Shown: positions 9,985 to 31,265, numbered from the stretch's first letter. The stretch is 64,000 bases of DNA from an uncultured delta proteobacterium (GCA_963769935.1 CAVYNY010000007.1:192001-256000), one strand, 5' to 3'. The notes: generated by a model from the letters alone, not told the origin. Numbers and translations are program-made.

Positions 9985-11622
9985 TTACCGGGCGGCGGTT
10001 TTGTCGTTGCGGTCGAAATGTTCATTCATGAATTTCGCAAGGTCTGATGTGTCGAATGTGAATTTCATGTTTTTCCTGAATTTAGCGAGGTCGTCATACA
10101 AAGCTGAAGCGCTCTGATATCTTACCTCTTTTTTCTTTGCCAGGCATTTCATAACGATGTCATTGAGTTCGGCCGGGATCCCCTCTCTCGCTTGCATTAA
10201 AGGTTCGATCTCCAATGTTGGAATAGCTCGAATAGCTTCCACATCCGTGTCAAAAGCGTAGACTTTTTTTCCACTGATAGTTTCATAGAGAACCAGACCA
10301 AGGGCATAAATGTCGGTTCTTTGGTCGATGGGTTCTCCTAGTGATTGCTCGGGGGATAAATAAGCCAATTTTCCTTTAATGACGCCGGCCAGGGTTAGGC
10401 TCGGCTCGGATATTGCCTTGGATATGCCGAAATCGCTTATTTTTACCTCGCCTTCATAGGAGATCAGCATATTTTGCGGACTGATATCCCGATGGATAAT
10501 TTCAAGGGGTTGGCCGCTGTCGTCATCCCGCCGGCTGTGAGAATAATCCAGGCCTTTGCATATTTTGGAAATGATGAATACGGAATGTTCAATGGGCAGC
10601 CCCTTTCCCAAAGCTGTCAGGATTTCCTTTAAATTTTTCCCATGGATATATTCCATGGCAATGAAATAGGCGTTTTCGATATTGCCGTAGTCGAAAATTT
10701 GAACAACATTGGGGTGTTGTAATAGCGCGGCCAGGCGCGCTTCCCGGGTGAACATCTTGATGAATTCCGAATTTCCAGCCAGGTGCGGCAGGATGCGTTT
10801 TATGGCAACCTTTCTTCGAAAACCGTCTTCCCGTTCGTAATCCGCCAAAAACAATTCGGCCATTCCGCCCTGGGCAACCTTTTGACGAATCAGATAGGGC
10901 CCGATGCGCTCCATGTTTGCAATTTCCTGCTTGATTTTTAACACCCTGGCTTTGGCCCTGCGGTCATGCCAGAAAATTATCGCAACGGCTAAGACAGCAA
11001 GCAGAGCGATCCCGGAAAAATATATGCTCCGTGAAAAATTTATGAATCGATTAAGATCGGCGGTTGAAAGGTCGATATAGACCGCTCCGATCTTCACATT
11101 AGAAAACGTTATATCTTTAAAAAAACCGATATCTTCCGTGTTGTCCGGTAAATGATTTGCAGTTACCGTGACTTCGTCCCTTACAGCGATCGGTTTTTGA
11201 TTCTGAGGGGGCTCGAACTTACCAACTCTCGGTTCAGCGCCTGCCTGCGCCAGAATCGTATTTGTGTGATCAGTAATCACTGCGAAATTAAGGCTTTTGA
11301 TCTTCTCCAGTTCTCTGATTTCAACGCTAAGGGCAAGCTGCTCTTTTTCCAATACCAATGGTGCGCTTTTGGCTGCCAAATCGGCGGTAGCTGCGAGACC
11401 TTGCTGATAAAGATCATTTCTTGCCCGCTCAACGCCGGAGCGATAAACAAAATAGCCGGCTAAACCGGCAACCAGCCAGACAGCGAGGCAGAGGACGATT
11501 GTTTTGCCATTGCGGCGCATAAATTCCATTTCTTTTATATTTTTTGATATTCGGTTGAAAATGCTCGTTGAAAATTCCTTTACTTTTACCGCCGTCGTTG
11601 ACGCAATATCGGTCGCAAACAT
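9985..11622 (-). CDS. Ser/Thr protein kinase with N-terminal TM-periplasmic sensor-TM and C-terminal kinase domain
   Basis: AQGGMA, VAIKR, HRDISPQN, DFG and YLSPE. Two TM segments flank a ~140-aa extracytoplasmic domain. AGGAGG RBS. Confidence 0.92.
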   Translation of the reverse strand: MFATDIASTTAVKVKEFSTSIFNRISKNIKEMEFMRRNGKTIVLCLAVWLVAGLAGYFVYRSGVERARNDLYQQGLAATADLAAKSAPLVLEKEQLALSVEIRELEKIKSLNFAVITDHTNTILAQAGAEPRVGKFEPPQNQKPIAVRDEVTVTANHLPDNTEDIGFFKDITFSNVKIGAVYIDLSTADLNRFINFSRSIYFSGIALLAVLAVAIIFWHDRRAKARVLKIKQEIANMERIGPYLIRQKVAQGGMAELFLADYEREDGFRRKVAIKRILPHLAGNSEFIKMFTREARLAALLQHPNVVQIFDYGNIENAYFIAMEYIHGKNLKEILTALGKGLPIEHSVFIISKICKGLDYSHSRRDDDSGQPLEIIHRDISPQNMLISYEGEVKISDFGISKAISEPSLTLAGVIKGKLAYLSPEQSLGEPIDQRTDIYALGLVLYETISGKKVYAFDTDVEAIRAIPTLEIEPLMQAREGIPAELNDIVMKCLAKKKEVRYQSASALYDDLAKFRKNMKFTFDTSDLAKFMNEHFDRNDKTAAR

Positions 11623-11671
11623 CGGACAACCTCCTAACGAATACTGAGTTTAGGGATTATTAATTCATGGC

Positions 11672-12550
11672 CTAGGCGGTCAATTTTTGAATAATTTCAG
11701 CGCATCGCAATATGATCTGACGTTTGATCCCATAAAGATCCTGGCGGTCGGCAATCTCCGATAAATCAATTCCTTTTAAGTCAGCATGGCATTCAGCGTT
11801 CTGCCCGGGATTCGAAATCTTCGCGATCGATTTTTCGTAAAGATGGGGGTGATAAAATCCATCGGCATTGACGGTTTTATTTGTGCCGCACATGGGACAC
11901 ATGATCACGTGTTTATCCGCTCTCGGCGCCTCTTGACGCCGGTGCCAGAAAAAATCCTTCAGCAGCCGTGGGTTGACGTTGATTTTTCGCCAGCCCAGCA
12001 TTACCATGAACAGCAATAGACATAGAAAGCTTAAAGCCGCGGCGATCATAAATTGATTTCTGACCATTACCGTTTTTGCGGCTGAAAGCGCAAGGTAAAT
12101 TTCACCAATTTGGGTGCCGGCATAATGGATGCCTGATGTAAAACTGACAATTTTTTTTTGGTTTGGAAATTCGCCTTTCCAAAAGGTTATTTGATCCTTT
12201 TTTTGCACGGAATCATTTCTGACGGGTTTGACATTTTGGGCACCCGCAACGGCTACAATTTCATCGCGATAATCGGACACCGCCAGATATAGGATGTCCT
12301 TTCTTTGCCCGATATCCATTACCTGTCTACGGATGGCCGGCGTATCTTTTTCTAAAAGCTTAACACTGATTTGTTTGGCAAGTCCGCTAACGATATTGAT
12401 TCCGGATTCCTGAATGCCGGAATTGATGTGCTCCAATCGAAGGGCCGTGACGGCGTAGCCCAGGGCTATCAATATCCACCAGACGACAATACCCAAAATT
12501 AAATGGCGGGAGTTAAAACCTGCTCTTTTTAGCCGGCTCAAGTCCATCAA
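11672..12550 (-). CDS. Two-TM membrane protein with periplasmic domain paralogous to the adjacent kinase and a cytoplasmic CPMC motif
   Basis: LLEKD...LAVSD...IHYAGTQIGEIYLALS aligns with the kinase's VLEKE...AVITD...ITFSNVKIGAVYIDLS; C-terminal CPMCG. Confidence 0.75.
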   Translation of the reverse strand: MMDLSRLKRAGFNSRHLILGIVVWWILIALGYAVTALRLEHINSGIQESGINIVSGLAKQISVKLLEKDTPAIRRQVMDIGQRKDILYLAVSDYRDEIVAVAGAQNVKPVRNDSVQKKDQITFWKGEFPNQKKIVSFTSGIHYAGTQIGEIYLALSAAKTVMVRNQFMIAAALSFLCLLLFMVMLGWRKINVNPRLLKDFFWHRRQEAPRADKHVIMCPMCGTNKTVNADGFYHPHLYEKSIAKISNPGQNAECHADLKGIDLSEIADRQDLYGIKRQIILRCAEIIQKLTA

Positions 12551-12913: not shown

Positions 12914-13933
12914 GTGATGACTTATATTCAGATTATTCTATTAGCCGCTCTGATAATGCCGGCAGGTTTACTTTCCTGCGTTCCTATCGGTCCAGCCTCA
13001 GGGTATTCTTCCTCAGGGGACTCATCCCAAAATATTTTTAGATCAAAGGAATTTATCGTCTATCAGTTGCCGACAGCCGCAACGTCGACTGAATTGGCCG
13101 AACGGTTTCTGGGAGACAGCCATAAGTCGTGGCTGATCGAGGAGTCCAATCCAGGCGCTGGCTTTAACAGCGGCGAGCTGATTGTCATTCCGCTGAATCA
13201 TTTCGACAGGGGTGGATTGTGGAGAGACGGTATACAGACAATACCCATCCTCACCTATCACCGGTTTTCCAATGATTGCAGTTCACCGCTTTGCGTGGGC
13301 AGCAGCATTTTTGAGAATCAGATGAGATATCTGAAAGAAAATGATTTCCATGTCATTTCACCGGAGCAGCTGCTCGCCTTTCTGGAATACAGGGAGGGCT
13401 TGCCGAAAAAATCCGTATTGATCACTATGGACGATGGATATCGTTCAGCTTATGAGATTGCTTATCCCATCCTCAAAAAATATGGCTTCACGGCGACGTT
13501 TTTTATTTATACGAATTTTGTCGGCGTATCCAAAATGGCCATTACCTGGGATCAACTGAAAGAACTGAAAGCAAATGGATTTTCAATCGGTTCTCATACC
13601 ATAAGCCACAGCGATTTGACCCAGCGCGAGGACGGGGAAACCGAGGCTGATTGGATGGCCAGGATTGATAAGGAACTTCACGGTTCCAAGCAAATACTCG
13701 ATAAAAAATTGAACCAGGATACGATATCGCTGGCCTATCCGTACGGCAAATATGACCAACGTGCCATCGAAACTGCCCGAAAAGCCGGCTACAAAATGGC
13801 GATGTCGGTCCAAAGAGGCGGCAACCCCTTTTTTGCCGATCCCCTGTATCTGCGAAGGGACATGATATTGAAAAAGGATCTGCAAACATTTATCTCCAGA
13901 CTGAATACTTTTAAACCCATGTCGTTAAAGTGA
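12914..13933 (+). CDS. Polysaccharide deacetylase (CE4/NodB) lipoprotein
   Basis: Lipobox LLSC; PILTYH, ITMDDGY, GSHTISH and AYPYG motifs; degenerate LysM-like segment before the catalytic domain. Confidence 0.9.
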   Translation: MMTYIQIILLAALIMPAGLLSCVPIGPASGYSSSGDSSQNIFRSKEFIVYQLPTAATSTELAERFLGDSHKSWLIEESNPGAGFNSGELIVIPLNHFDRGGLWRDGIQTIPILTYHRFSNDCSSPLCVGSSIFENQMRYLKENDFHVISPEQLLAFLEYREGLPKKSVLITMDDGYRSAYEIAYPILKKYGFTATFFIYTNFVGVSKMAITWDQLKELKANGFSIGSHTISHSDLTQREDGETEADWMARIDKELHGSKQILDKKLNQDTISLAYPYGKYDQRAIETARKAGYKMAMSVQRGGNPFFADPLYLRRDMILKKDLQTFISRLNTFKPMSLK

Positions 13934-13940
13934 GAATGCC

Positions 13941-15365
13941 ATGAAAACAAGAGCTGGAATTATCGGTATTATCTTTTTGTGCGTGCTGGCAAACGGTTGC
14001 GCAACCTTGGGGACCAAGTCGTCCCCCAAAAATCGTGAGCAGTTGGCTGATGAGTATCAGACCAAAGCCCGGGATTACGAAGCGAAAGGTGAATTGGTTG
14101 AAGCGCTGGAACAATACAGACTTTGGCTCACGGTAGATCCTGAAAACAAATCGGCTCAGGATAAAAGCACGCAGATCGGACAGGAACTTCAAAAGTTGGC
14201 CGAAAGCCATTATCAAAGCGGACTGGCCTACTATCAAAAGGGGCAATACACTCCGGCCCGCCAGGAATTTTTAACTGCCCTCAGAGATGATCCGGATCAC
14301 CAGGGGGCAAAAGAGATGCTTATAGCCAATCGAGAGTTGGAACAGGTCGACAGATATGTATTGCATACGATCCAACCGAATGAGACCCTTGCAACATTGG
14401 CCAAACAATACTACGGCGACTATAAGAAATTTCATTTGATCGCCATATACAATGGCATCGAGGACGCCACTAAAGTCAGGGTCGGACAGCAGATTAAGGT
14501 TCCGGTCTTCGAGGGGGTCCCGATTATGGCAGATCCATCGAAAATTCTGACTGTTTCCGGCAAAGCTCCTCAAGCAAAACCGGAAGAAATCATAACGGTT
14601 AAAGGTTTCGTCGTCCATACCGTTAAAGCTGAGGATACCCTGTCGAAGCTGGCAAAAGAGTATTACGGCGATTTAAAAAAATTTGATCTCATTGCCAAGT
14701 TTAACGACATGCAGGTATCCGACAGTCTGCAGGTCGGACAGGAGATTAAAATCCCTGAGGTCGAGGGCGTGCCGTTTCTGGCACCTGAAGCCAAAGAGCT
14801 GACAGAGATCAAAACGCCGGAAGCGGAGGCCCCGGCGGCGAAAGAAGCACAGCCGGAAAAAGCTGCAGAGGAGCCGGCAACAGCCAAAGTGGAGGCCTCC
14901 GAAGAAGACCAGGCGGCCGCTTACCGGAAGTCCGGCATTGAGTTCTATCAGGATAAGAACTATGCGGACGCGGTAGTAGAACTGCAGAAGGCTTTAAGTG
15001 CAAATCCGGATGATAAGGTTACTAAGGATTATCTGTCGTTAGCCTACTTTGAACAAGGAGTTGCTTCCTTTAACAAAGAGGACTATTCTCAGTCCATCAA
15101 GGCGTTCGAAACCTCCCGGCAGTTCAACAGCAGCTGTGAAAAATGTGAATCGTATCTAAAGCAAAGCCAGGAAAAATTCAAAGATCTTCATTATCGCCAA
15201 GGGGTCTCGTATTTCGGGCAGGAAAAACTGGCCGAAGCCATCAGCGAATGGCAACAGGTTTATAACATGGATCCGAACTACAAGGACGTCAGCAAAAATA
15301 TATCCAAGGCTCAAACATTGCTGCAACGCCTTGAGGAAATACAAAAGAGCAATCAAAAAAAATAA
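13941..15365 (+). CDS. TPR - 2x LysM - TPR lipoprotein
   Basis: Lipobox ANGC; HTIQPNETLATLAKQYYG...GQQIKVP and HTVKAEDTLSKLAKEYYG...GQEIKIP; flanking TPR helices. Confidence 0.9.
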   Translation: MKTRAGIIGIIFLCVLANGCATLGTKSSPKNREQLADEYQTKARDYEAKGELVEALEQYRLWLTVDPENKSAQDKSTQIGQELQKLAESHYQSGLAYYQKGQYTPARQEFLTALRDDPDHQGAKEMLIANRELEQVDRYVLHTIQPNETLATLAKQYYGDYKKFHLIAIYNGIEDATKVRVGQQIKVPVFEGVPIMADPSKILTVSGKAPQAKPEEIITVKGFVVHTVKAEDTLSKLAKEYYGDLKKFDLIAKFNDMQVSDSLQVGQEIKIPEVEGVPFLAPEAKELTEIKTPEAEAPAAKEAQPEKAAEEPATAKVEASEEDQAAAYRKSGIEFYQDKNYADAVVELQKALSANPDDKVTKDYLSLAYFEQGVASFNKEDYSQSIKAFETSRQFNSSCEKCESYLKQSQEKFKDLHYRQGVSYFGQEKLAEAISEWQQVYNMDPNYKDVSKNISKAQTLLQRLEEIQKSNQKK

Positions 15366-15515: not shown

Positions 15516-17009
15516 ATGGCCAACCAAACCGCAACCACGTCGATTGCGCCCGCCCCCCCGCCGATCAGGGTGAGAATCGAAAAAGGCACTGCCGACAAAA
15601 GCGAGTATGTGTTTACCCAACCATTTCGCTGCGGGCGCGATGAAAGCTGTGAGGTACGACTTGCCGATACGGCGGTGAGTAGATTTCATGCCGAATTTTG
15701 GTTTTCGGCCGGAAGATGGTGGATACTCGATTTGCAAAGTGGCAATGGATCGTACCTGGATGGAACGAAAGTCGAACGTGCGCCGATAGCAACCCTGGCC
15801 AGAGTCCAGCTGGGCGATGATGGTCCGGTGCTTCTCTTGACGGTTGAACGGGTTCCAACGGCTGAAGACGTTAAAGAAGATAAAAAGGTTCAAGACCGGC
15901 CCCGCTCACTTGAACACTACCAGGAGCACTATTTCCAGGATACTGAAAAAGGCAATGTCGGCGAGCATACGATGATGATCCGGCAAGCCTTTAAAAGGGT
16001 CCAAAACCGCCAGAGAGGAAGATTTATCGCTGTCATCTCGATTTTGAGTTTTTTGGTTCTAGCCGCCGGTATATATGCTCTGTACAAACATCAGGAAGTT
16101 TCCAAGCAAAAATTATTGGCCGAGGATATTTTCTATGCCATGAAATCCATGGAGCTTGAGTTTGCGCCGCTTGTAAAGATGGCCAGACTCAGCCAGGATG
16201 CCAACCTTCTGGCTAAGGTCCAGGAGTACCAAGCCCGCCGCAAAGTGCTGGAAAACAAGTATGACAAGTTTATCGAAGCACTTGAAATCTATAAGAAAAG
16301 CATCAGTCCCGAAGAAAGGATCATTCTGCGTATCGCCCGTATTTTCGGTGAGTGTGAAATAAAAATGCCTGAGGGTTTTGTGCACGAAGTGTTGAATTAC
16401 ATTGAGAAATGGAAAGCCACCCCCAGGCTGAAAATGGCTGTTCAACGGGCCCGGCAAAGAGGCTACACCACCAAAATAGCTGAAACCTTGCTGGCTCATG
16501 ATTTGCCCCCCCAGTATTTTTATCTGGCCCTTCAAGAGAGTAATTTTGACCCCGAGGCTTGCGGACCGGAAACCAAATGGGGCATTGCAAAAGGAATGTG
16601 GCAATTCATACCGGATACAGCTGTTGTTTTCGGTCTTCGCACCGGCCCCCTGCAAGATCAGCGACGGCCGGATCCGCTCGACGATCGCCATGATTTTGAA
16701 AAGTCGACCGAAGCGGCCGCCAAGTACATTAAGGCCATTTATGATACGGATGCCCAGGCTTCCGGGCTGCTGGTTATGGCCTCCTACAACTGGGGTGAAA
16801 GACGGGTGAACCGGCTCATTAAAACAATGCCTGAAAATCCACAGGAAAGAAATTTCTGGCTTCTGCTGGACAAATATAAAAAGCAAATTCCCCGTGAGAC
16901 TTACGACTATGTGTTTTCCATCTTTTCAGCCGCCGTCATCGGCGAAAACCCCGCTCTTTTCGGCTTTGACTTTGAAAATCCGCTGATGCATATCGAAAGC
17001 CGATTGTAA
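15516..17009 (+). CDS. FHA domain - TM - coiled coil - lytic transglycosylase (SLT/MltD-like)
   Basis: FHA GR...VSRFH...DLQSGNGS; TM FIAVISILSFLVLAAGIYAL; SLT motifs QESNF, GMWQF and SYNWGE. Confidence 0.9.
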   Translation: MANQTATTSIAPAPPPIRVRIEKGTADKSEYVFTQPFRCGRDESCEVRLADTAVSRFHAEFWFSAGRWWILDLQSGNGSYLDGTKVERAPIATLARVQLGDDGPVLLLTVERVPTAEDVKEDKKVQDRPRSLEHYQEHYFQDTEKGNVGEHTMMIRQAFKRVQNRQRGRFIAVISILSFLVLAAGIYALYKHQEVSKQKLLAEDIFYAMKSMELEFAPLVKMARLSQDANLLAKVQEYQARRKVLENKYDKFIEALEIYKKSISPEERIILRIARIFGECEIKMPEGFVHEVLNYIEKWKATPRLKMAVQRARQRGYTTKIAETLLAHDLPPQYFYLALQESNFDPEACGPETKWGIAKGMWQFIPDTAVVFGLRTGPLQDQRRPDPLDDRHDFEKSTEAAAKYIKAIYDTDAQASGLLVMASYNWGERRVNRLIKTMPENPQERNFWLLLDKYKKQIPRETYDYVFSIFSAAVIGENPALFGFDFENPLMHIESRL

Positions 17010-17531: not shown

Positions 17532-18887
17532 ATGTGTAAAAAGATCATTTATCTTCGGATACTTTTTATATTTGGACTAGTGATGCTTTCGGGCTGCACG
17601 TCGTATATGAAAGGTACCATGGATTTGGAGCGGGAAAATTATGAAGCTGCCATCGAAAACTTCCAGCAGGAACTGTCAAAAAACCCAAACAACTGGCAGG
17701 CCAGGCAGCAACTCGGGTTCGCTTATCTGAAAACCGGTCGGAATGACCAGGCAATTGCCGAGTTGCAATACGTCCTGGGGCAAGAGCCGGCTGACGTAAC
17801 GGCCTTGAGCTACGCCCCCAAGGATGTCGAGCGCGGGCTGGGGCAAAAACCGGATGCCCCTTACGCGAATTATTACCTGGGACTGGCGTATTTGCGCAAC
17901 GGACAGCGAAGTGAGGCCGTTGAAACCTGGCGGACCTACAATAATCCGCGTGAGCCGATACTGGCAGACGAAATCAAAAAACAGGTAACGGTCGTCGATA
18001 TCTATGACAGTCTGTATCTTGCCAGGCAAGCCCTGGAAGAGGAGAAAAAGCTTGAAACGACGCCGCCCAAACCGGGAACGGTCGCCGTATTTTATTTCAA
18101 GGATCTCAGCCCGGACAATCGCTTTCGCTATCTGCAAAAAGCAATGGCTGAAATGATTATCACGGATTTGACGAAGGTGAAATCTTTGCAGGTTCTGGAA
18201 CGGACGCGCGTACAGTATCTTTTGTATGAGATGAAAATGGGACAGACAGGCATTGTTGAAGAAAAAACGGCACCTCGAGCGGGTCGGCTGCTCGGGGCCG
18301 AAAACCTGCTCGTGGGCAGCCTCGAACCCGGCAGCATAGAAGCCAAGGCCAGCGTAGCTTCCACGACATCCAAGGATGTGGTCGGCGCCTTTTCAGTCAA
18401 AGCGGAGCAGGAAGAGTTTTTTGTGCTGGAAAAAGAAATAGTCTATAACGTATTGAAAGTATTGCCGGTTACTTTCACTCCGGAGGAAGAAGCGCAATTT
18501 AAAGGGTATCACACCAAAAACCTGCAGGCCGTCCTTTACTTCGGCCAGGGACTCGATGCCCTGGATGCGGGTCAATGGAAAGATGCCAGGGTTTCCTTCA
18601 AAAGGGCCACTGAAGAGGACCCGGACTTTAAATTGGCCCAATATTATCTGGAGCGATGCCCTGCTGCAACTGTCGCCAGTTTAACTACCCTGGGTGGGAT
18701 GACGGTGGGGCAAATGGCCGACAATGTCGAAGCGGCTGTGGATCAGGCCTCAAGTGCTCAAGCGGCCATAACATCCGGCCAGGGAACAGGGCCTGGAGAA
18801 GGGGGTGTTCCTTCTGGCCCAACGCCGGCACCGGCGCCGACACCGACTCCGGGACCTACTACCGGAAATGTATCCATCAGCTGGTAG
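17532..18887 (+). CDS. TPR + CsgG/TolB-N-like lipoprotein with Pro/Thr/Gly tail
   Basis: AGGAGG RBS; lipobox LSGC; TPRs; VAVFYF...VLER...AGRLLGAENLLVGS. Confidence 0.85.
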   Translation: MCKKIIYLRILFIFGLVMLSGCTSYMKGTMDLERENYEAAIENFQQELSKNPNNWQARQQLGFAYLKTGRNDQAIAELQYVLGQEPADVTALSYAPKDVERGLGQKPDAPYANYYLGLAYLRNGQRSEAVETWRTYNNPREPILADEIKKQVTVVDIYDSLYLARQALEEEKKLETTPPKPGTVAVFYFKDLSPDNRFRYLQKAMAEMIITDLTKVKSLQVLERTRVQYLLYEMKMGQTGIVEEKTAPRAGRLLGAENLLVGSLEPGSIEAKASVASTTSKDVVGAFSVKAEQEEFFVLEKEIVYNVLKVLPVTFTPEEEAQFKGYHTKNLQAVLYFGQGLDALDAGQWKDARVSFKRATEEDPDFKLAQYYLERCPAATVASLTTLGGMTVGQMADNVEAAVDQASSAQAAITSGQGTGPGEGGVPSGPTPAPAPTPTPGPTTGNVSISW

Positions 18888-18954
18888 TGGATTGCAGCTC
18901 CAAAAGATATGGAAAAACTCAGCTTTTCGAAACGTCCACAAGCGGGAGGATAAG

Positions 18955-22126: not shown

Positions 22127-23311
22127 ATGAACTACGGTCGGTACGAGGTTGTTGATGAAATTGGCCAGGGTTCAATGGGGGTTGTTTATCGGGCCTATGA
22201 TCCCCAAATCAATCGGCACATTGCTTTGAAGCTATTGCGCCAGGACCGGGTCACCAGCGAGGAATTGGTGCAGCGATTTCTCAAAGAGGCCCAGGCCATG
22301 GGAGGGCTTTCGCATCCCAACATCGCCACCGTTTACGATACGGGACAGGATCACGGCACCATCTTCATTGCCATGGAAATATTGAGGGGTAAATCCCTCA
22401 AAGACCTTATGGGGGAAAAGAAATTAAGTCTTAATGAAATTGTTCATATCGGCGTTCAGGTCGCCGAAGCGCTTGACTTTGCCCACCAGAAAGGCATTGT
22501 GCACCGGGACATAAAGCCCTCCAATATCATTATAGATCCTAAAGGCAATGCAAAAATCACAGACTTCGGCATTGCGCACATCGAGGATCCTGCCGGCACC
22601 CAGCAAACGATACCCGGACAAATTTTAGGCACCCCCCTTTACATGTCGCCCGAGCAGGTCATGAGCAATCCCGTGGACGGGCGCTCGGATCTTTATTCTT
22701 TGGGGGTTATCCTATATGAGATGACCACCGGAACCCCTCCCTTTAAAGGCGATAACCTCGCCGCCATCTTCCAGGCAATTTTGCAGGGGACACCCCGGGC
22801 GCCGGAGCTGGACGGATCTCCTGTTTCCCGGAACCTCTCCAATCTGATTATGAAGAGTTTGAACAAAGATCCCGCCAAGCGATTTCAGACGGGCCTGGAG
22901 ATGGCACAACCGCTCAAAGGTTGTCTTCAGAGGAGGCAGTCGGATACCATCCGGGGCGTGAGGCGTCCTGAAAAACGCAAACGCCTTTTTCCCATGGTGT
23001 TGGCAGCCATAGTACTCCTTGCCGCAGCCGCCGGATTGATTTATTTTAAGACCGGCAAAAGTACCCCGCCGGAAAACAAGCTTTTAGCAGTTTTAAAAGT
23101 CGAGAGCGATCCCTCGGGCGCCAACGTTTTTTTAAACGACTCCCTTAAAGGCCAAACTCCTCTGACCATTGATCTGCCTCTCGGGAAATATGAAATTCGT
23201 TTAAGTCGCCAAAATTTCAATGAATGGGAAGCTCAACTTCAACTGGATGAAGCGGGTGAAACGCCTTTGTTTGTAAGGCTTATTGCCGTGGAAAAAAATC
23301 AGAACCCATAA
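22127..23311 (+). CDS. Ser/Thr protein kinase - TM - PEGA domain
   Basis: GQGSMG, ALK, HRDIKPSN, DFG and YMSPE; TM; PEGA-like VESDPSGANVFLN...GQTPL...LPLGKYEI. Confidence 0.95.
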   Translation: MNYGRYEVVDEIGQGSMGVVYRAYDPQINRHIALKLLRQDRVTSEELVQRFLKEAQAMGGLSHPNIATVYDTGQDHGTIFIAMEILRGKSLKDLMGEKKLSLNEIVHIGVQVAEALDFAHQKGIVHRDIKPSNIIIDPKGNAKITDFGIAHIEDPAGTQQTIPGQILGTPLYMSPEQVMSNPVDGRSDLYSLGVILYEMTTGTPPFKGDNLAAIFQAILQGTPRAPELDGSPVSRNLSNLIMKSLNKDPAKRFQTGLEMAQPLKGCLQRRQSDTIRGVRRPEKRKRLFPMVLAAIVLLAAAAGLIYFKTGKSTPPENKLLAVLKVESDPSGANVFLNDSLKGQTPLTIDLPLGKYEIRLSRQNFNEWEAQLQLDEAGETPLFVRLIAVEKNQNP

Positions 23312-23332: not shown

Positions 23333-25288
23333 GTGATTAAAATGAGGTCCCTTATAAAAATGCTTGCCTGCTCGGCAGCACTTGTCGGCCTCGCTGTCAT
23401 CATCAGCGAGCCGGGCTACGGCCAAATTGCTGCCGGCCGACAGGCACCCGCCTTTGCCTTGGAGGATATCGGCGGTAAGCACCATGAGCTGGCAACGCTG
23501 GAAAACACGCCGATGGTTATTCTCTATTTTTTTGACGTAACGTCCCGACCCAGTCAAGAAGGCCTGTTGGCGCTGGATAATCTTGCCGGACGCTATGCGC
23601 AGGCCGATTTGAAAGTGTGGGCGATCACCCGTTCCGCCAAAGAAAATGTGTCTGAATTTGTTTCCCGGAGCCGAATTTCCTACCCGGTTCTCGTAGACAA
23701 TTCCAAAGTCAGCGATCTTTACCAGGCCCGCTTCGTGCTGCCGACGGTTTGCATCCTTGGCCCCGGGTTGAAAGTGCTGGATTATATACAGGGAGGCGGC
23801 AAAACCACCGAAATTATGCTGGTGAAGTTGGCTGAAAAAGAATTGCAGCGTAAACAGACAACGATCGCGAGAGAGATCAGTGAAGATGTTGTCCGCAAGG
23901 ACCCGCAAAATGTAGATGCTAAAATGGTCAAGGGATACGCGGAACTCAAAGGCGGCGATCTGGCTGCCGCTGAAAAAACCTTCAACTCCCTGTCTCAAGA
24001 CGCGGGCCAGGGCAAAGTTCTGGGCGAAGAGGGGATGGTTTCCGTGTATGCCGAGAAAGGACAGACCCAAGAGGCTTTGGACCTGGCCGAGAAAGTAGAG
24101 CAAAAAGCACCGGATCGGGGGTATGTGAATACCGTCAAGGCAGATATTTTATATGCCAAAGGCCAAAAAAAAGAAGCCCAGGCCGAATACCGCAAGGCCG
24201 TGAGTAAAAAATCGGCCGCTCCTTTTCAAAAGGCGGTTTCGCTGAATAAGCTCGGGCGCCTGCAGGCCAGTATCGGGAATTTGTCCGGGGCCCGGGAGCT
24301 TTATGATCAGGCGGTGGCAATTGATCCTTATTACATTGAAGCAACCGCCAATTCTGCCAAGACTTACGAAAAAGAGGGCAAGTGGGATAAAGCCCTGGGT
24401 GCGTACCGCCAGGCTCTGGCAGTCGATAAAGATGATGTGTTTGCCGCGACCCTGGCGAAAAGAGCTCAGATGATGGTTGCGCTCCAGAATGATGTTGAGA
24501 GAAAAAAACGCATGGACGCCCTGGTCAAGCGCCTGGCCGAGCGCTATCGCAGCCAGCAGCAATCCAAAACCAAAGCAGCGGAAGACTCCTGGACGTCGCG
24601 GCCCATGGTGATGACTTTCGTCGATTTGCAGGAAAAAGGCGGATTATCCGAACGGGATGGATTGCCCACCGTTTTAATGTTTCAACTGTCCGATGAGCTC
24701 AATGCATCCGGCCGAATTCATGTGGTCGAACGGATCTTGATTGAAAAACTGCTCGAGGAATTAGATCTCGGCTCCTCGGACTTGGCCGATCCCGATACGG
24801 CCTTAAAACTGGGCAAAATACTGGCCGCTAAAATCATCGGTACCGGTTCTATTTACTATCTTCCGGCCGGCAATATTCTGAGTCTGCGCTTGATCGATAC
24901 CGAAACCTCGGAGCTGCCCAAGATCATCAACCGCCAGTTCGGTCCGAAAGTGTCGCTGGATAAAGAACTGAATCAGCTTTATCACGAAATTCTGACAGCT
25001 GTTATGCAAACTTATCCGTTGCGAGGCTACATTGTGCAGGTATCTTCGGATCGGATTATGATCAACCTGGGATCAAAACAGGGTGTGAGCCAGGGCACTA
25101 AATTTGAGGTATTAAAAGAAAAGGAACCCATCGAGTACAAGGGTAAAATCCTGCACGGTGCACCCGAAGCCGTTGCATTATTGCAGGTGGAGCAAGTCGA
25201 GCCGGATCTTTCTTACGCGCGCATTCTGAGCAAGCAAATCCCCATCGCCCGCGATGACAAGATTCAGGAGAAAGTGGGAAAACTCTAG
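23333..25288 (+). CDS. Exported thioredoxin-fold (no CxxC) - TPR - CsgG-like - FlgT-C-like protein
   Basis: APAFALED.GG redoxin start; TPR array; VVER...EELDLGSS..AD...ALKLGKIL; INLGSKQGV..G.KFEV. Confidence 0.8.
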   Translation: MIKMRSLIKMLACSAALVGLAVIISEPGYGQIAAGRQAPAFALEDIGGKHHELATLENTPMVILYFFDVTSRPSQEGLLALDNLAGRYAQADLKVWAITRSAKENVSEFVSRSRISYPVLVDNSKVSDLYQARFVLPTVCILGPGLKVLDYIQGGGKTTEIMLVKLAEKELQRKQTTIAREISEDVVRKDPQNVDAKMVKGYAELKGGDLAAAEKTFNSLSQDAGQGKVLGEEGMVSVYAEKGQTQEALDLAEKVEQKAPDRGYVNTVKADILYAKGQKKEAQAEYRKAVSKKSAAPFQKAVSLNKLGRLQASIGNLSGARELYDQAVAIDPYYIEATANSAKTYEKEGKWDKALGAYRQALAVDKDDVFAATLAKRAQMMVALQNDVERKKRMDALVKRLAERYRSQQQSKTKAAEDSWTSRPMVMTFVDLQEKGGLSERDGLPTVLMFQLSDELNASGRIHVVERILIEKLLEELDLGSSDLADPDTALKLGKILAAKIIGTGSIYYLPAGNILSLRLIDTETSELPKIINRQFGPKVSLDKELNQLYHEILTAVMQTYPLRGYIVQVSSDRIMINLGSKQGVSQGTKFEVLKEKEPIEYKGKILHGAPEAVALLQVEQVEPDLSYARILSKQIPIARDDKIQEKVGKL

Positions 25289-25300: not shown

Positions 25301-25801
25301 GTGTCGCTGCCAAAGCAACTCATAGGACTGTCACTGCTGCTGCTTGCGTTTTTATCCGGATGCACCCCGCTGCCTAAGCCAAGTGTGGACCGGCAGACGT
25401 CGGCGGTTGCTGTCTGGGATTTGGAAAACTTGAATCCGGACGAGGGCATCGGGACCGATATGGGCGAACTTTTGGCGTCGGAAGTGATCGAGACGTTCAA
25501 AGAATCCAGTACATTTCAGGTAGTCGAAAGGCAGCGTCTCATCCTGGCGCTGGAAGAGTTGAATCTGGGCAGCTCTTCTTTGGCCAACGAGGCGACGCGC
25601 TTGAGAATCGGCCGCATCGTGGGCGCCCGTTTCATGGTATTCGGCGGTTATTTCGTGCTCGGCGATATGATGCGTCTGGATTTGCGATTGGTGGAGGTTG
25701 AAACCGGCGCGATCGTCAAAGCGGCAGAGAAGACAACTGCTGCCGGTGATTTGAACGGCTGGCTGAAAGCCACGCGGCAGGCAGCCGAGGAATTGATTTA
25801 G
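25301..25801 (+). CDS. CsgG/HfaB-like lipoprotein
   Basis: Lipobox LSGC; VAVWDL...VVERQRL...EELNLGSS...IGRIVGA...RLVEVETG. Confidence 0.85.
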   Translation: MSLPKQLIGLSLLLLAFLSGCTPLPKPSVDRQTSAVAVWDLENLNPDEGIGTDMGELLASEVIETFKESSTFQVVERQRLILALEELNLGSSSLANEATRLRIGRIVGARFMVFGGYFVLGDMMRLDLRLVEVETGAIVKAAEKTTAAGDLNGWLKATRQAAEELI

Positions 25802-25802: not shown

Positions 25803-27515
25803 ATGATCGAGGGGGGACTATTGCCCACGATGCGTTTCAAAATCGTTAACACGGATGATCCCAATCTTGTTTTTGAGACAGATCGGCGAGAATTCGCACT
25901 CGGCAGATCCAAAGAGTGTGAGATCGTCATCCAAGATCCTTCTATTTCAAGGGTTCAGGCCCGGGTTCGGTTTGAAAGCAACCGTTTTTACATTGAAAAT
26001 ACAGGGCAAAATCCCGTTCAGATAAATGGCGCACCCACAGCCGGCCAGTTTCTCAATGACGGTGATCAAATTACGCTGGGCACAACCAGTTTCCGGTTTC
26101 AAGCAGACCGGACTTTTGATGTAACACCGCATCCGATCGCTTTTGACGAGAAAACAATCGCCGTTGGCTCCCTGCCGAATCATACATTGGGTCCACGCCT
26201 GGTTCTCACCACCGATGCCGGCGACACGCAAGCATACCCCATGAATAAGGACCGCCTTATCATCGGTCGGTCCGAAGATGCAGACATCGCTTTGCAGGAT
26301 CCCTCCATTTCGCGCCAACACGGCATAATCGAACAGCGGGAAGACGGGTATTTTGTCAAAAACTTGAGCCAAACCAATCCGTTATTGCTCAATGATGCGA
26401 CCGTTTCCGACAATCGCCTTTATTCAGGGGATCTTATTCGCGTCGGCTCTTTTTATTTGACTTTCGTATCAGACCGGCCCGAGGACGCCAAACCCATCGA
26501 GGAGAAGATCATCACTCAGCAAAAGGGACCGGGGTGGGCGCTCTGGCTGGCAGCGGCCTGCTTAATTCTGATTGCTGGAAGCTTCTTGCTTTACCGGCAT
26601 GCTTACTATCCCTGGAAAATTAATCGGAACCTGAAATCAATTGCCGGTCAAATTGCGGCGGGCAAATATCAGCCGGCCCAAGACGCGCTGCGGCGTCTGC
26701 TCACTAAAGGCGTCTCGCCGGACAGCAGGCGCAGGGCCAGAGAGCTGCTGGCTCAGACGGCGCTGGCGATTGTGCAGAATCTGGCCGAAGCCGGCAAGCT
26801 TCCGGAGGCGGAACAATACCTGATTGCCTATCTGAAAGAATATGGCGGCGGCAAAGAAGCGGACACTCTCTGGGAGCGCCTGGATATGTACCGGGTCGAA
26901 ATCGCTCAAAACCTGGAAACCGCCTCGCAGTATCAGGCCGCTTTGGGCCTGTATGCAGCGGTGAGAGAAGACAGCCCCTATTATGGCCGCGCCCAGCAGG
27001 GCATCCGGCGAATTTGGCTTGCGTCCCAGCAGGAACAACGCCGGGATCAGAATGTGGCCCAATTGCTTCAGGAGGCTGATCAGGATTTCAGAGCCAAACG
27101 CTACCTGACGCCGGTCAACAGCAATGCCTATTCTGTTTATCAGGCCGTTCTGGCCGCAGATCCTGAGAACTCCATTGCTCTGGAGCGCATCGAGCAAATG
27201 AAAGACTTCTATCTCAGATACGGCGAAGAGTATTTTAATAAAAATAGCTGGCGCAATGCCCTGACCTATTTTGAACGATATGTTTTTATGGCACCCGATT
27301 CACCGGACATCCAGCAGAAAATCGACCTCTGCCGCGCTAAGTTGAAAGCATCCGATTCGAACGGTCCGCAGACCGGGGCAAAATCAGCCGCACCGGAAAA
27401 GAGCCGCGAGCAGGTCAAAAAATTACTCGAAGAATCCGGCGTTGAAAGTTCGCGCATCATCAAATTTCTTTATGAGGATCCGGGCGGTGAAAAAGATCCC
27501 GAAAAACCCTGGTAG
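25803..27515 (+). CDS. Tandem FHA-FHA - TM - TPR protein
   Basis: Two GRS...DPSISR motifs; TM WALWLAAACLILIAGSFLLY; helical repeats after the TM. Start may be ATG 25830. Confidence 0.88.
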   Translation: MIEGGLLPTMRFKIVNTDDPNLVFETDRREFALGRSKECEIVIQDPSISRVQARVRFESNRFYIENTGQNPVQINGAPTAGQFLNDGDQITLGTTSFRFQADRTFDVTPHPIAFDEKTIAVGSLPNHTLGPRLVLTTDAGDTQAYPMNKDRLIIGRSEDADIALQDPSISRQHGIIEQREDGYFVKNLSQTNPLLLNDATVSDNRLYSGDLIRVGSFYLTFVSDRPEDAKPIEEKIITQQKGPGWALWLAAACLILIAGSFLLYRHAYYPWKINRNLKSIAGQIAAGKYQPAQDALRRLLTKGVSPDSRRRARELLAQTALAIVQNLAEAGKLPEAEQYLIAYLKEYGGGKEADTLWERLDMYRVEIAQNLETASQYQAALGLYAAVREDSPYYGRAQQGIRRIWLASQQEQRRDQNVAQLLQEADQDFRAKRYLTPVNSNAYSVYQAVLAADPENSIALERIEQMKDFYLRYGEEYFNKNSWRNALTYFERYVFMAPDSPDIQQKIDLCRAKLKASDSNGPQTGAKSAAPEKSREQVKKLLEESGVESSRIIKFLYEDPGGEKDPEKPW

Positions 27516-27728
27516 TTTCCGGCGGGGCGGCCATGCAATTTAAATATTTCCTCAGACACTTAACTGAGCGATATCGACAATTTGTTGTCGATGTTGATTA
27601 ACCGCTGGCAGTTCTATGTATGAATGAACTAAAATTAAAAATGACTAAAATGAGCTAAAATTTTGGAATCCTATCGATTTAAAAAGACAGAATACCGCAA
27701 ATATTCAATATTCGATTTTCAATCTTCA

Positions 27729-29366
27729 ATGAAAAAGCGCAGGGCCTACCTTTTAATTTCTGTGATCATCGTCATACTGGCCGCCTGTGCTATGACGGAG
27801 ACGGCAGAGACACCGCAACCCGAAGTGGCCGACAAAAGCCTGCTGCCGCACAAGGTCGCTATTCTGCCGTTTGTCAATCAAACCTCCAATCCGAAAGCTG
27901 CCGCAGTTATGCGACGGATGTTTTACAATTTCTTCAGTTCTCTGAATTACCTGGATGTGGAACCCTCTTTCATCGATGAGAAGCTGGCCGGGACCGATGT
28001 TTATCAAAAAATCACGGCCGGCGAAGCTGTTTCCCCCCAGCAGCTGGGCCAAATGCTGGGCGTCGATGCCGTCGTGTTCGGTGAGGTTCTCAGCCTCGGT
28101 AAAGTTTATGCAGTATTATATTCCGATACGGAGGCCAGCCTCAGGGCCCGGCTGGTCAGCTGTCAATCCGGCCAAACCATTTGGGAGCTTGAACATACAG
28201 CGCACCTCAGAGAAGGGGACGTACCCTTAAGCATTACCGGGCTGGCCGCGGCGATTATCAAGACGGCTATCAGCCATGAAATGGCTGATGTCATGCAGGC
28301 TGCTTCCAAGCTCTGTATGCAGATGATTGCCACCATTCCCGACCGGCCGGCGCTCGCTGAATCTCCGCCTCGGATCCAGGTGATGGTTCACAACGGCGCC
28401 GGTACGCTCCTGCGGCCGGGGAGTCTTTTGAAAGTGGTCATGGTCGGTGATGAAAAAATGGAAGCCAGCTGGAGTGTCCCGCCCTTGATTGAAAATCTTG
28501 CGATGAAAGAAGATGAACCGGGAGTCTATTTTGCCAGCTATCGCATTAAACCGCAGGATCGGCTGCCATACGGCCGGCTGGTAGGTCATCTGCGATCAAA
28601 AAAAGGGCTCCAGAGCCAATGGGTGGATATTTTGGGACCGATAACGATCGGTGAACCGACCGTGCTGCCGTCGGTCATCTCCGGGGACCAGGTACTGGAG
28701 TCTTCGCAGAGTCCCTATCTGGTGAAAGATGCGCTGGTGGTGCTGCCCGGTGCGAAGCTCACGATGAATCCCGGCACGGTTGTATGGTTCCGTCGCATGG
28801 GAATCGTTGTAAAGGGCGAACTGAATATTATGGGATCGGCAGACAACCCGGTTCACCTGGCGGGTATGGGTGATTCCGGCTGGAAAGGGATCCTGCTGGA
28901 TCAGAGCCGGTCGGACAATGTTTTATCCTTCGCAACGATATCCAATGCTGAATTCGGATTCAAAGCCGCCGGCTCCAATGTTAAATTTCAGCATTGCCTT
29001 CTGCAGGAAAATAAATGGGGAATCGTGCTTGACAATACGTCAGCCGAAATACATGACAGCCTTATCCGCACCTCTGAAAAAACAGGCATCTCCGCGCGTA
29101 CGTCTCAACTGCTGGTAAAAGGATCAACCATCTCAGAGAATGGTTTTGGCGGATTTTTACTGGAAAATTCAACGGCCCGGATCGAGCAGAACAATATTTC
29201 AAATAACGGCAGCTGGGCCATTAAGGTAGTTCAGAGCCCGGGCCCAGTCGGCGCGGCCAATAACTGGTGGGGGAACAAAAATTTTGACCCGGAAACAATG
29301 ATTATCGGACCGGTGAAAATTCAGCCCACCCTGGCTAAACCTCCCGCGATCCAGATGCTGGAGTAA
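27729..29366 (+). CDS. DUF799/GNA1162-like lipoprotein fused to a right-handed beta-helix domain
   Basis: Lipobox LAAC; VAILPF.N...LGQMLGVDAVVFGEV; C-terminal parallel beta-helix repeats and ANNWWG. ATG 27729 preferred. Confidence 0.8.
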   Translation: MKKRRAYLLISVIIVILAACAMTETAETPQPEVADKSLLPHKVAILPFVNQTSNPKAAAVMRRMFYNFFSSLNYLDVEPSFIDEKLAGTDVYQKITAGEAVSPQQLGQMLGVDAVVFGEVLSLGKVYAVLYSDTEASLRARLVSCQSGQTIWELEHTAHLREGDVPLSITGLAAAIIKTAISHEMADVMQAASKLCMQMIATIPDRPALAESPPRIQVMVHNGAGTLLRPGSLLKVVMVGDEKMEASWSVPPLIENLAMKEDEPGVYFASYRIKPQDRLPYGRLVGHLRSKKGLQSQWVDILGPITIGEPTVLPSVISGDQVLESSQSPYLVKDALVVLPGAKLTMNPGTVVWFRRMGIVVKGELNIMGSADNPVHLAGMGDSGWKGILLDQSRSDNVLSFATISNAEFGFKAAGSNVKFQHCLLQENKWGIVLDNTSAEIHDSLIRTSEKTGISARTSQLLVKGSTISENGFGGFLLENSTARIEQNNISNNGSWAIKVVQSPGPVGAANNWWGNKNFDPETMIIGPVKIQPTLAKPPAIQMLE

Positions 29367-29387
29367 AGTATTCGAGCTCCACAATTT

Positions 29388-29427
29388 TTGCTCTAAAATT
29401 GAAAAACAGGTCCTCTGGGCTTGGATT
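29388..29427 (+). repeat. Degenerate third copy of the 39-bp palindromic intergenic repeat
   Basis: AAAATTGAAAAACAGGTCCTCTGGGCTTGGAT, between convergent genes. Confidence 0.55.
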
Positions 29428-29457
29428 CTTTACTTGAGCGCTTAACGGACAGAATAC

Positions 29458-30354
29458 TTAGGATTTGAAAAATTTGCCGAAAATTTTTTTAGCAACTTTA
29501 GGGGAAGCGGTGGTTTTGTTTTCAGCTGGCGGCGGGGTTTCCGGCGCCTGAGGAGGCACATCGGTTCTTTGCAATGGTGCGTCTTCAATTTCTGCCAGAC
29601 GGCCGGCGCCCAAAAACCGGAAGTTGGGTCCGTCGGCGCTCAGGGAGAGGCGACTTTCGGGCTGCAGTGCAGCTTGAGACGGCACGGGCGACCCATTGAT
29701 GGCAACCTGGTTTCGGCCGGTCAGATCTTTTACCCAATATTGTCCCTGATGGAAGAAAATCTGGGCGTGTTGCTCCAAAATACCGGGATGGTCGATGCTG
29801 AAATCACACGCCGGGTTCCGGCCGATGGTGACGGGCAGTTCCTTGAACGTACGCAGGGTCGGCCCATACTGAATGATCAGGGGCATCTTTGTTCTTTCGA
29901 TCTCCATTGCCGGAGCCGGCATCTCCGGCGGAGGCGGGGAAGGGGCCCGCGGAGTTTGAGGTTGAGAAGGCCGGGGCCGATTCATCCGGTCTGCTGGTAT
30001 TTCCGGAGTTTGCTGAAAATCCGCCGGTGATTCAGCAATTTTGGTCAGAAAACTGACTTTAGGCCCACCGTCGGCAAAAAGTAAAATATCGCCGTCTTTT
30101 AAGATTGCTTCGGTTATCCGTGTCCCGTTTAAAAACGTTCCGTTGGTGCTCTGATCAATTAATTTGAAACGATTGCCTTCCCTGACGATGCGAGCATGTT
30201 CGCGGGAAATGATGGCCAGATCTTTTGGGAAGCGCACATGGCAGGACGGCTGACGCCCGATGGATATTTCATTATCAGGAAATTCCTGAATTTCCCCCTT
30301 CATGGGACCCTGAATATGAACCAATTGCATAATAATGAGAGGTGCTTTTTTCAT
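29458..30354 (-). CDS. Soluble double-FHA protein with Pro-rich linker
   Basis: FHA1 IGRQ...ISREH...STNGT is intact; FHA2 IGRN...LEQH...GRNQV is degenerate. No TM. Confidence 0.9.
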   Translation of the reverse strand: MKKAPLIIMQLVHIQGPMKGEIQEFPDNEISIGRQPSCHVRFPKDLAIISREHARIVREGNRFKLIDQSTNGTFLNGTRITEAILKDGDILLFADGGPKVSFLTKIAESPADFQQTPEIPADRMNRPRPSQPQTPRAPSPPPPEMPAPAMEIERTKMPLIIQYGPTLRTFKELPVTIGRNPACDFSIDHPGILEQHAQIFFHQGQYWVKDLTGRNQVAINGSPVPSQAALQPESRLSLSADGPNFRFLGAGRLAEIEDAPLQRTDVPPQAPETPPPAENKTTASPKVAKKIFGKFFKS

Positions 30355-30518
30355 ATTCCCAATGATTCTCCATTTGGCTTGTCGGATTGAATGGCGCTTG
30401 CCTTTATCTGATAAAGTGCTTTAAAGTACCCCTCTCTGTCAAGAAAATAATGAAGAAGAGCTGACTGTCGGTCCCGTCCGGTCCGACAAATCATATAAAT
30501 ATTAACCCCAGGATTTAG

Positions 30519-31265
30519 GTGCAGATGACTATGCTGAACATTAATTTTGCTGGAAAAACCAACATCGGCCTCAAGCGAACCGCCAATGAGGACGTGTTTA
30601 TCATTGAAGGCCAACGGGGATTTTGCCTGGTAGCCGACGGTTTGGGTGGGGCCGCAGCTGGTGATGTAGCCAGCCGGTTTTTTGCCGAAGCAACGGCGGA
30701 AGTATTTCGGCAGGCCGCCGATTTGGATGAAGAAAATGTCGTCAAGCGAGTTCAGGAGTCTTTCCGCCTGGCCCATGATAAAATACGGGATCATATAAAG
30801 ATAAATCCCTTACACAATGGCATGGGGTGCACTGCCGAATTGTTGGCGTTTTCCGATCAAGGGTTTGTTGTCGGACATTTGGGGGACAGCCGGACATATC
30901 GTTTCAGAGACGGCCATTTGAAACAATTGACGCACGACCATTCCCTGGTTCAGGATCAACTTGACAAGGGGCTTATCGGCGAGGAAAAGGCCAGGCGGCA
31001 TCCCCTTAGAAACGTTATTCTCAAGGCAGTTGGTATCGAGGAGGATCTGGCCCTTGATTTGATCCGCGGGCGGACCTACCCCGAGGACCAATTCCTGCTC
31101 TGTTCGGATGGATTGACGGATATGGTCGAAGACGTTGCCATCGGCAAGGTCTTTAACTCACCGATCCCGGCCGGCAAAAAAGTAGACCAGCTCATTGATC
31201 TGGCGCTTGCCGGCGGCGGCAAGGACAATATAACCGTGGTTCTCATAGATATCAAAGGATCATGA
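30519..31265 (+). CDS. PP2C-family Ser/Thr phosphatase (Stp1/PrpC-like)
   Basis: R..NED, VADGLGG, HLGDSR.Y, DHS, LCSDGL and GGKDN. Confidence 0.95.
   Translation: MQMTMLNINFAGKTNIGLKRTANEDVFIIEGQRGFCLVADGLGGAAAGDVASRFFAEATAEVFRQAADLDEENVVKRVQESFRLAHDKIRDHIKINPLHNGMGCTAELLAFSDQGFVVGHLGDSRTYRFRDGHLKQLTHDHSLVQDQLDKGLIGEEKARRHPLRNVILKAVGIEEDLALDLIRGRTYPEDQFLLCSDGLTDMVEDVAIGKVFNSPIPAGKKVDQLIDLALAGGGKDNITVVLIDIKGS

Follow-up and report, generated by a model that had tools for sequence, protein, structure and literature searches.

Introduction

To assemble, a type VI secretion system (T6SS) requires local cutting of the cell wall, by TagX or MltE, and its assembly is gated by PpkA, PppA, Fha and TagF (PMC13584744 and PMC10433429). 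The gating pathway, which operates through Thr phosphorylation, is represented by TagQRST-PpkA-PppA-Fha1-TagF in the H1-T6SS of Pseudomonas aeruginosa and by RtkS-PpkA in Serratia; TssW-PpkA-Fha of Acidovorax is another form of it (PMC12607579). PMC3608642 describes host-associated Deltaproteobacteria with another tag cluster, one of the Pseudomonas type. In the reviews consulted, timed or placed wall opening by the T6SS comes down to two cases, TagX and MltE, neither tied directly to a kinase switch, and Table 1 of PMC13584744 lists no FHA-transglycosylase fusion. Here we describe an island of 15 genes (g1 to g15, numbered in window order; 9985-31265) in an uncultured delta proteobacterium, one part of which, module A, most closely resembles this pathway. 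The window, that is, the whole stretch of 64,000 nucleotides analysed, is positions 192,001-256,000 of contig C7 of the source genome (G000, 96.7% complete). G, L and C numbers denote genomes, loci and contigs, and coordinates without a prefix are those of the window.

The original prediction regarded the island as a self-contained, undescribed machine, switched by Ser/Thr phosphorylation, that would open the wall and assemble or export a surface structure, or else sense envelope contact or damage. In our view the island is a mosaic of three modules beside a T6SS, with module A probably the Thr-phosphorylation trigger of that system and the FHA-transglycosylase fusion g5 predicted to open the wall where the kinase is active.

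Results

A complete T6SS (C7:146,865-175,526; tssJKLM-tagF-tagJ-tssABC-hcp-tssEFG-clpV-vgrG) was located on the island's own contig by searching the source genome with the common neighbours of g5 relatives, the most frequent of which are kinases, VgrG, TssG, ClpV, PP2C, TssF, TssK, TssM and TssL. TagF, which is known to repress Fha, scores over the cut-off here, the locus also holds a fused tssB/C-like gene and an FHA-cyclase, and DUF6484, DUF2169, PAAR-like and TsiV genes lie 3' of it. The T6SS ends 26 kb from g1 and ∼16 kb before the first base of the window, so that the predicted absence of T6SS genes holds inside the window and fails on the contig. Among the open reading frames (ORFs) scanned in the T6SS locus there is no kinase or PP2C; the FHA-cyclase is the only signalling gene of this kind there.

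Module A consists of g5, g14, g15, g8, g9, g10, g11 and g6, and it co-occurs and is syntenic with T6SS genes. We searched 351 genomes, each at least 85% complete, of the order Desulfobacterales, of which the source genome is an inferred member, for TssC and for the markers g5, g10, g4 and g13. TssC was found in 99 of them: in 16 of 18 g5 carriers and 83 of 333 non-carriers, and, for g10, in 32 of 36 carriers and 67 of 315 non-carriers (89% of carriers versus 21-25% of non-carriers), although kin within the sample are not independent and Fisher p-values therefore overstate. The 36 g10 carriers remain after dropping four genomes with only weak matches near E 1e-52 (G058, G204, G252 and G334); with weak matches kept, the count is 33 of 40. 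G015, a genome of the same genus as the source, encodes a close relative of g5. In GTDB genomes, g5 relatives were encoded in 556 of 597 matched stretches, and the best 80 loci were retained. TssC was present in 46 of 50 further carrier genomes picked from these 80, mainly outside the Desulfobacterales and mostly Acidobacteria, versus 4 of 70 in an even sample of the phylum to which one acidobacterial carrier belongs, classes being unmatched. Of the 80 g5 loci, 26 include a core tss gene, as do 23 of the 41 that span at least 15 kb, as counted by tblastn; simple ORF calling overlooked g5 in some GC-rich loci.

In G092, tagF is directly followed by g5, and tssA by the run g14-g15-g8-g9-g10-g11; this run is next to vgrG in G184, to tssA in G262 and to genes upstream of tssJ in G240, and in G284 and G201 the greater part of it flanks the T6SS. 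Among 17 g10 loci the recurring neighbours are kinase-module and T6SS genes, not flagellar genes, with g11 in 15, g9 in 13, g8 in 12, g14 in 9, g6 in 8 and g15 in 7. Where a genome has both g10 and TssC, the two share a contig in 14 of 32 cases, 13 of them within 45 kb.

The link between phosphosignalling and peptidoglycan remodelling is most direct in g5 (15516-17009, + strand), in which an FHA domain, a transmembrane segment, a coiled coil and an MltD-type lytic transglycosylase (SLT) domain are joined in one chain (Pfam and structural model). The model (predicted local distance difference test score, pLDDT, 84.5) comprises the FHA domain, a disordered linker, a long helix (residues 148-226) that includes the transmembrane segment, a second helix and the SLT domain, and its fold matches are FHA domains, the OdhI/GarA and DgcB structures among them, and MltD (8rhf). 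Over 78 full-length members, the catalytic Glu341 (78/78) and the G-x-W-Q-F and Y-N motifs are invariant, the transmembrane segment is present in all, and the FHA residues Arg41, Ser55 and Asn77 are present in 75, 75 and 76, respectively. Position 152 is Thr in 74 members and Ser in two, with I, V or L at +3 in all 78, and it is the sole Thr column above 40% in residues 1-170 and the only conserved Thr on the cytoplasmic side. Many FHA domains prefer ligands of the form Thr-x-x-[IVL], and Thr152-x-x-[IVL] is a candidate phospho-switch of g5. The periplasmic domain is predicted to be a peptidoglycan-cutting enzyme anchored in the inner membrane. No peptidase domain was found in g5, so it is not a TagX of the VanY type; the nearest named family is MltD, not MltE.

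The Hanks kinase g9 (22127-23311, +) has a PpkA-like topology, with Pkinase at residues 6-254, a transmembrane segment at 287-305 and PEGA at 322-380, and its activation-loop residues Thr161 and Thr169 are kept in 17/17. The soluble, Fha/TagH-like g14 (29458-30354, −) has two FHA domains around a Pro-rich stretch, and the phospho-Thr-binding residues of the first (G-R, S-R-x-H and N) are invariant in 18/18. The PppA-like PP2C phosphatase g15 (30519-31265, +) has its metal-binding motifs and, like g14, belongs to modules A and B, and g8 (21167-22123, +) is an exported serine protease (Trypsin_2) with His, Asp and Ser motifs. The topology of g9, the presence of g15 and the linkage to a complete T6SS with TagF are those of the Thr-phosphorylation pathway, and the earlier analogy to PpkA, PppA and Fha was well judged.

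Four proteins had been predicted to share the CsgG fold. Matches of the CsgG or GNA1162 type were indeed obtained for g6 (17532-18887, +; a TPR and CsgG/TolB-N-like lipoprotein with a lipobox), g10 (23333-25288, +; a CxxC-less thioredoxin fold, TPRs and a FlgT-like C-terminal half, the second marker of module A), g11 (25301-25801, +; a small LpoB/CsgG-fold lipoprotein of 166 residues) and g13 (27663-29366, +), but the Pfam CsgG matches of the first three are partial, spanning profile positions 9-99 of 210. In g11 a loop of some six residues stands where this match ends, and the protein aligns to LpoB without gaps but weakly (E 0.07). The g10 model (pLDDT 87.3) has just a short hairpin at that point; its best Foldseek match is FlgT (3w1e, E 1.5e-8), a match at the domain level only (TM-score 0.18/0.26, root mean square deviation 11.6), and g10 carries the Pfam FlgT_C domain. 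A VIA search with g10 was filled by thioredoxin and TPR domain matches and was uninformative on the C-terminal half. The pore hairpins are thus absent in g11, by alignment and PDB profile match, and in the g10 model, and we read g10 and g11 as putative periplasmic scaffolds or activators and not as the pores of the original prediction. A flagellar role for g10 was rejected, flgH lying on contig C21, as was a redox role, there being no CxxC. The predicted lack of curli and Tad genes extends to the whole source genome, in which CsgF, curlin and TadE were not found, and on the last of these a Tad role was rejected. For gliding, general scans gave one weak GltG FHA match, and no genome-wide gliding search was made.

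Module B comprises g1-g4 together with a PP2C, an FHA-cyclase and an MBOAT/AlgX pair, and its distribution is independent of the T6SS. Its marker, the TPR-LysM-LysM-TPR lipoprotein g4 (13941-15365, +; Pfam), is present in 50 of the 351 genomes, with TssC in 18 of the 50 carriers versus 81 of 301 non-carriers (p 0.23). The order algX-mboat-cyclase-PP2C-g1-g2-g3-g4 is held in six TssC-negative genomes (G012, G020, G362, G049, G120 and G224), and TssF and VgrG were also undetected in 21 of the 23 TssC-negative g4 carriers tested, out of 32. Across 22 g4 loci, two of which overlap (both G290), the neighbours were g3 (21), g1 (16), g2 (14), PP2C (14), MBOAT (9), AlgX (9) and the cyclase (8); mixed blocks of modules A and B stand beside T6SS genes in G290, G280, G050, G311 and L070.

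Within the island, g1 (9985-11622, −) is a Hanks kinase with a sensor domain, in the order transmembrane-Cache-transmembrane-kinase (Pkinase, weak sCache_3_2, two transmembrane segments, HRD and DFG motifs), and its Thr410 is conserved in 18/18. Adjacent g2 (11672-12550, −), which the original prediction passed over, is a paralog of the g1 sensor domain that lacks the kinase (blastp to the N-terminal half of g1, E 7e-15) and had no match in Pfam, NCBIfam or PDB, and g3 (12914-13933, +) is a CE4 polysaccharide deacetylase lipoprotein (Polysacc_deac_1; lipobox, metal motifs) with a weakly LysM-like N-terminus and a best PDB match to 6dq3 (E 2e-30). The conserved unit reaches left of the predicted border to an MBOAT O-acyltransferase (8177-9604, −; Pfam) and an AlgX/AlgJ-like protein combining SGNH and SASA esterase domains (4678-8172, −; Pfam ALGX and SASA; AlgJ 4o8v, E 2e-5), an SGNH-MBOAT acetyltransferase pair that the 15-gene bounds had left out. 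Whether or not a T6SS is present, module B likely senses the state of the wall and armours it by changing its acetylation. The FHA-adenylate/guanylate cyclase, a member of module B elsewhere, lies within the T6SS locus in the source genome (C7:171,775-172,719; L111:13776-14720), and its linker threonines are conserved.

Module C is the pair g12-g13, one of two copies of a genus-wide pair, the other being on contig C1, and it too is distributed independently of the T6SS. The first gene, g12 (25803-27515, +), encodes an FHA-FHA-transmembrane-TPR protein (Pfam) with a C1 paralog (44%) and a Thr118-x-x-Val motif whose Thr is kept in 12/12; the second and marker, g13, is a GNA1162-like and beta-helix lipoprotein (Pfam), likewise with a paralog on C1. 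We found g13 in 28 of the 351 genomes, including 12/12 of the source genus, with TssC in 7 of the 28 carriers versus 92 of 323 non-carriers (p 0.83). In trees with midpoint roots, from which no sequence of events can be established, the T6SS-free g1 and g13 copies branch among or next to those linked to a T6SS, which hints at retention after T6SS loss. Contig C1 also carries, ∼25 kb away from its g12-g13 copy, an ExeA/ExeB-like pair and then genes for a CHASE2 kinase and a small FHA protein (C1:77,191-83,399; L021:7192-13400).

As to the island's inventory, all 15 ORFs are open (ORF check and Pfam), as predicted, and the catalytic motifs of the kinases g1 and g9, the PP2C g15, the CE4 deacetylase g3 and the protease g8 are intact. 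Pfam agrees with the prediction on two Hanks kinases, one PP2C and three FHA proteins (with 1+2+2 FHA domains), and on the SLT, CE4, LysM-TPR, trypsin, PD40 propeller and beta-helix genes. The PD40 beta-propeller lipoprotein g7 (18805-20799, +; Pfam PD40) has its lipobox at Cys79, and its true start is probably downstream of 18805; partial relatives come after g6 in G015 and L026. Promoter and terminator scans of the region gave what chance would give (20 vs 22.1 and 28 vs 25.8, respectively), and its borders show no tRNA and no sharp GC edge. Further along the window, a TRAP transporter region lies in fragments (36569-37671; a short DctP, and a DctM piece joined to a UxaC tail).

Several other genes near the T6SS or module A merit record. 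Between the T6SS and the island lies a defence-type run (C7:184,900-193,800 and window 539-1774 and 4012-4329) of RES/HEPN, two TIR proteins, HigBA, TPR-S/TRAF and a small nucleotidyltransferase. The vgrG gene is split in the source assembly (C7:173,273-175,526); contigs of 3 of 4 public runs (two studies) bridge the site, differing by one letter, and the split may stem from an error of assembly or be peculiar to the strain. RNA runs covered only small shares of the T6SS stretch. Directly 5' of tssJ, ORFs without a Pfam or NCBIfam match (C7:143,840-146,808; L110:3841-6809) have homologs in the same position in G284, G201, G092, G199, G145, G015 and G240, the first two being a single longer ORF in several relatives; these are candidate undescribed T6SS accessory genes. 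The fused TssB-TssC-like protein of ∼525 residues stands beside normal tssB and tssC (C7:169,979-171,562; L118:15928-17508; L161:15507-17078), and a very diverged fusion of this kind adjoins the g14 ortholog in G284, G290, G311 and G050.

In relatives, two unannotated proteins of ∼255-260 residues (clusters c14 and c16; L050:11319-12928, L118:14190-15856) recur in Desulfobacterota and Myxococcota as neighbours of g5 and of T6SS genes and were not found in the source genome by tblastn. A protein with caspase and FGE-sulfatase (TagR-like) domains is encoded directly 3' of g5 orthologs (L027:3830-5752, G102, G199, G076 and G273). A TolC-MacA-ABC-MacB set, possibly a TagS/TagT analog, adjoins the T6SS or module A in G116, G261 and G284, and in G092 without a TolC match (L134:1155-6180; L137; L117; L123). 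Lastly, four genomes have a 380-residue protein resembling an outer-membrane beta-barrel between their g11 and g6 relatives (L187:8050-9195; L183; L186; L192), which had no Pfam match and was not found in the source genome by tblastn.

Discussion

The mechanism that we propose for module A is as follows. The envelope proteins g10, g11 and g6 would form a periplasmic scaffold or sensor in place of TagQ and TagR and would activate the kinase g9 through its periplasmic PEGA domain. Activated g9 would phosphorylate the soluble g14 and Thr152 of g5; g15 would remove these phosphates, and TagF would repress. Phosphorylated Thr152 would then be bound by an FHA domain, that of g5 itself or of a neighbour, at the start of the long membrane-crossing helix, with the result that the MltD-type domain makes a local cut in the peptidoglycan to let TssJLM insert, and g5 would in this way do the job that TagX or MltE does elsewhere. 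A bolder version, which we hold only tentatively, makes g5 a one-protein transmembrane phospho-switch for T6SS wall opening and module B a T6SS-free descendant of the same pathway. Phosphorylation of Thr152 would in that case let the FHA domain pull the membrane-spanning helix and turn on the periplasmic transglycosylase, a direct wire from kinase to wall opening in Desulfobacterota, Acidobacteriota and other phyla, and module B would turn wall damage into cyclic nucleotide and wall armour.

A number of observations weigh against the idea of a T6SS trigger. Its functional steps rest on sequence and gene neighbourhood. Because few TssC genomes carry g5 (16/99) or g10 (32/99), neither is required. 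In G127 (89% complete), which has g5-g14-g8-g9-g10, and in G276 and G309, which carry g10, TssC, TssF and VgrG were not found, and G102, a single contig, carries g5 with TssF only. The distance from g10 to tssC is 1.1 Mb in G161, the two are on separate contigs in the well-assembled G311 and G230, g5 is an orphan in G249, and 54 of the 80 g5 loci, many of them short, have no core tss gene. A predicted helix starts close to Thr152, so the residue may be conserved for structural reasons; g14 scores 88 bits against TIGR03354 (TagH), below the cut-off of 120; and in the source genome unrelated defence and transport genes fill the 26 kb between vgrG and the island.

These observations leave room for other explanations. 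It is conceivable, though we think it unlikely, that the whole island is a defensive circuit that senses envelope damage and armours the wall, riding with T6SS loci as part of a conflict island and exerting no control over the T6SS, with g5 repairing or remodelling the wall after attack. The order of module B is kept in six genomes without TssC, 21 of the 23 TssC-negative g4 carriers tested also lack detectable TssF and VgrG, and the stretch from the T6SS to the island contains genes of the TIR, RES, HigBA and TPR-S kinds; walls are protected by both O-acetylation and N-deacetylation, and the former restrains lytic transglycosylases (PMC6127315). However, a purely defensive circuit leaves unexplained the tracking of TssC by g5 and g10, their embedding among tagF, tssA and vgrG, and why a TagF-bearing locus should be without its own kinase or PP2C. 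Envelope-damage sensing as originally suggested survives for module B, which is kept in genomes without detectable TssC, TssF or VgrG.

The self-contained machine of the original prediction has become improbable. The cluster is dense, intact and mostly co-directional, its sub-blocks are syntenic in G015, G116, G290 and L070, the three module A carriers without a T6SS found (G127, G276 and G309) would suit it, and with no curli or Tad marker in the source genome its genes serve neither system. Yet g5, g10 and g4 occur together only in the source genome among the 351, and the island encodes no exported substrate, ATPase or pore former; a T6SS lies close by. The 15 genes were never seen as one unit elsewhere; they fall into three separately distributed modules. 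Co-occurrence with a known T6SS, which was to count against a stand-alone system, largely holds for module A, whose g5 and g10 carriers are mostly TssC-positive with these genes inside T6SS loci. On the T6SS discovery and the split marker distribution, a stand-alone machine was rejected. More doubtful still is that three functionally unrelated modules came together in the source genome by chance rearrangement: the exact 15-gene order was seen only there among the loci examined, and modules B and C exist on their own, but mixed blocks of A+B or A+B+C stand beside T6SS genes in G116, G290, G280, G288, G050, G311, G363 and L070, and the stand-alone copies of g13 form a clade that excludes the island-type ones (on a midpoint root only). 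Least credible is a curli-type outer-membrane secretion pore. Pfam matches CsgG in g6, g10 and g11, and Atlas places g11 among CsgG family proteins, but the profile is less than half covered, the short loop and ungapped LpoB alignment of g11 and the short hairpin and FlgT match of g10 speak otherwise, and CsgF and curlin were not found in the source genome; on these grounds it was rejected.

We thus favour the mosaic of three modules with a T6SS trigger, in which module A is likely a new variant of the T6SS Thr-phosphorylation pathway with an FHA-enzyme fusion predicted to open peptidoglycan on a kinase signal. A widespread FHA-transmembrane-transglycosylase would unite wall opening and kinase trigger in one protein. 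The island also names FlgT-, LpoB- and TPR-like candidates for the upstream activators of T6SS kinases in phyla that lack any studied example, and in module B a kinase, deacetylase and cyclase module persists without the weapon. No description of the g5 fusion or of the modules was found in the literature searched, which did not extend to supplements and most subscription journals, and the available parts of PMC3482391, PMC5801462, PMC3942780 and PMC12419801 contain nothing on this system. This window contributes the three modules side by side, matched tests of co-occurrence that tell them apart, and the motif at Thr152.

Compared with the PpkA pathway, module A has the same inner-membrane kinase-transmembrane-periplasmic protein (g9), PP2C (g15) and soluble FHA protein (g14), with TagF in the T6SS locus and envelope proteins as candidate activators. 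It differs in that the kinase sensor is PEGA, in its TPR, FlgT-like and LpoB-like proteins and its protease, in the second, Cache kinase of the island, and in FHA domains fused to an enzyme (g5) and to a transmembrane-TPR protein (g12). No local activator of the TagQRST type was found: the island and T6SS ORFs scanned include no ABC transporter, and neither the island nor the T6SS locus has a TagR-type protein; the source genome has six FGE-sulfatase genes, which we take to be of the TagR type, none of them on C7.

The genes of module B likewise have known counterparts. Its MBOAT and SGNH pair, esterase domain and CE4 lipoprotein resemble PatA/PatB, AlgI/AlgJ, the Ape esterase and PgdA/PgaB-type deacetylases; unlike PatAB and AlgIJ, they are clustered with a Cache kinase, a PP2C and an FHA-cyclase, and their candidate substrates are peptidoglycan or exopolysaccharide. 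Among the envelope proteins, CsgG shares its alpha/beta core fold with the island proteins but has the membrane-spanning hairpins that g11 and the g10 model lack; LpoB is the protein to which g11 aligns; and FlgT, the Vibrio flagellar ring protein (3w1e/8z5n), is the top fold match of the C-terminal half of g10, which unlike FlgT adds a thioredoxin fold and TPRs and occurs in a genome whose flgH is on another contig.

For g5, the comparison is with two sets of proteins. Like TagX, the Acinetobacter endopeptidase, and MltE, the lytic transglycosylase of enteroaggregative Escherichia coli that is recruited by TssM, it is a wall-cutting enzyme linked to a T6SS, and like TagX it is predicted to have an inner-membrane anchor and a periplasmic catalytic domain; unlike either, it pairs a transglycosylase of the MltD type with an FHA domain in the cytoplasm and carries a candidate phospho-Thr. 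OdhI/GarA and Bdellovibrio DgcB, whose FHA domains bind their own phospho-Thr tails, share with g5 an FHA fold and a conserved Thr-x-x-[IVL] in one chain. In g5, by contrast, the Thr is placed between the FHA domain and the transmembrane helix, and the predicted output is a periplasmic enzyme.

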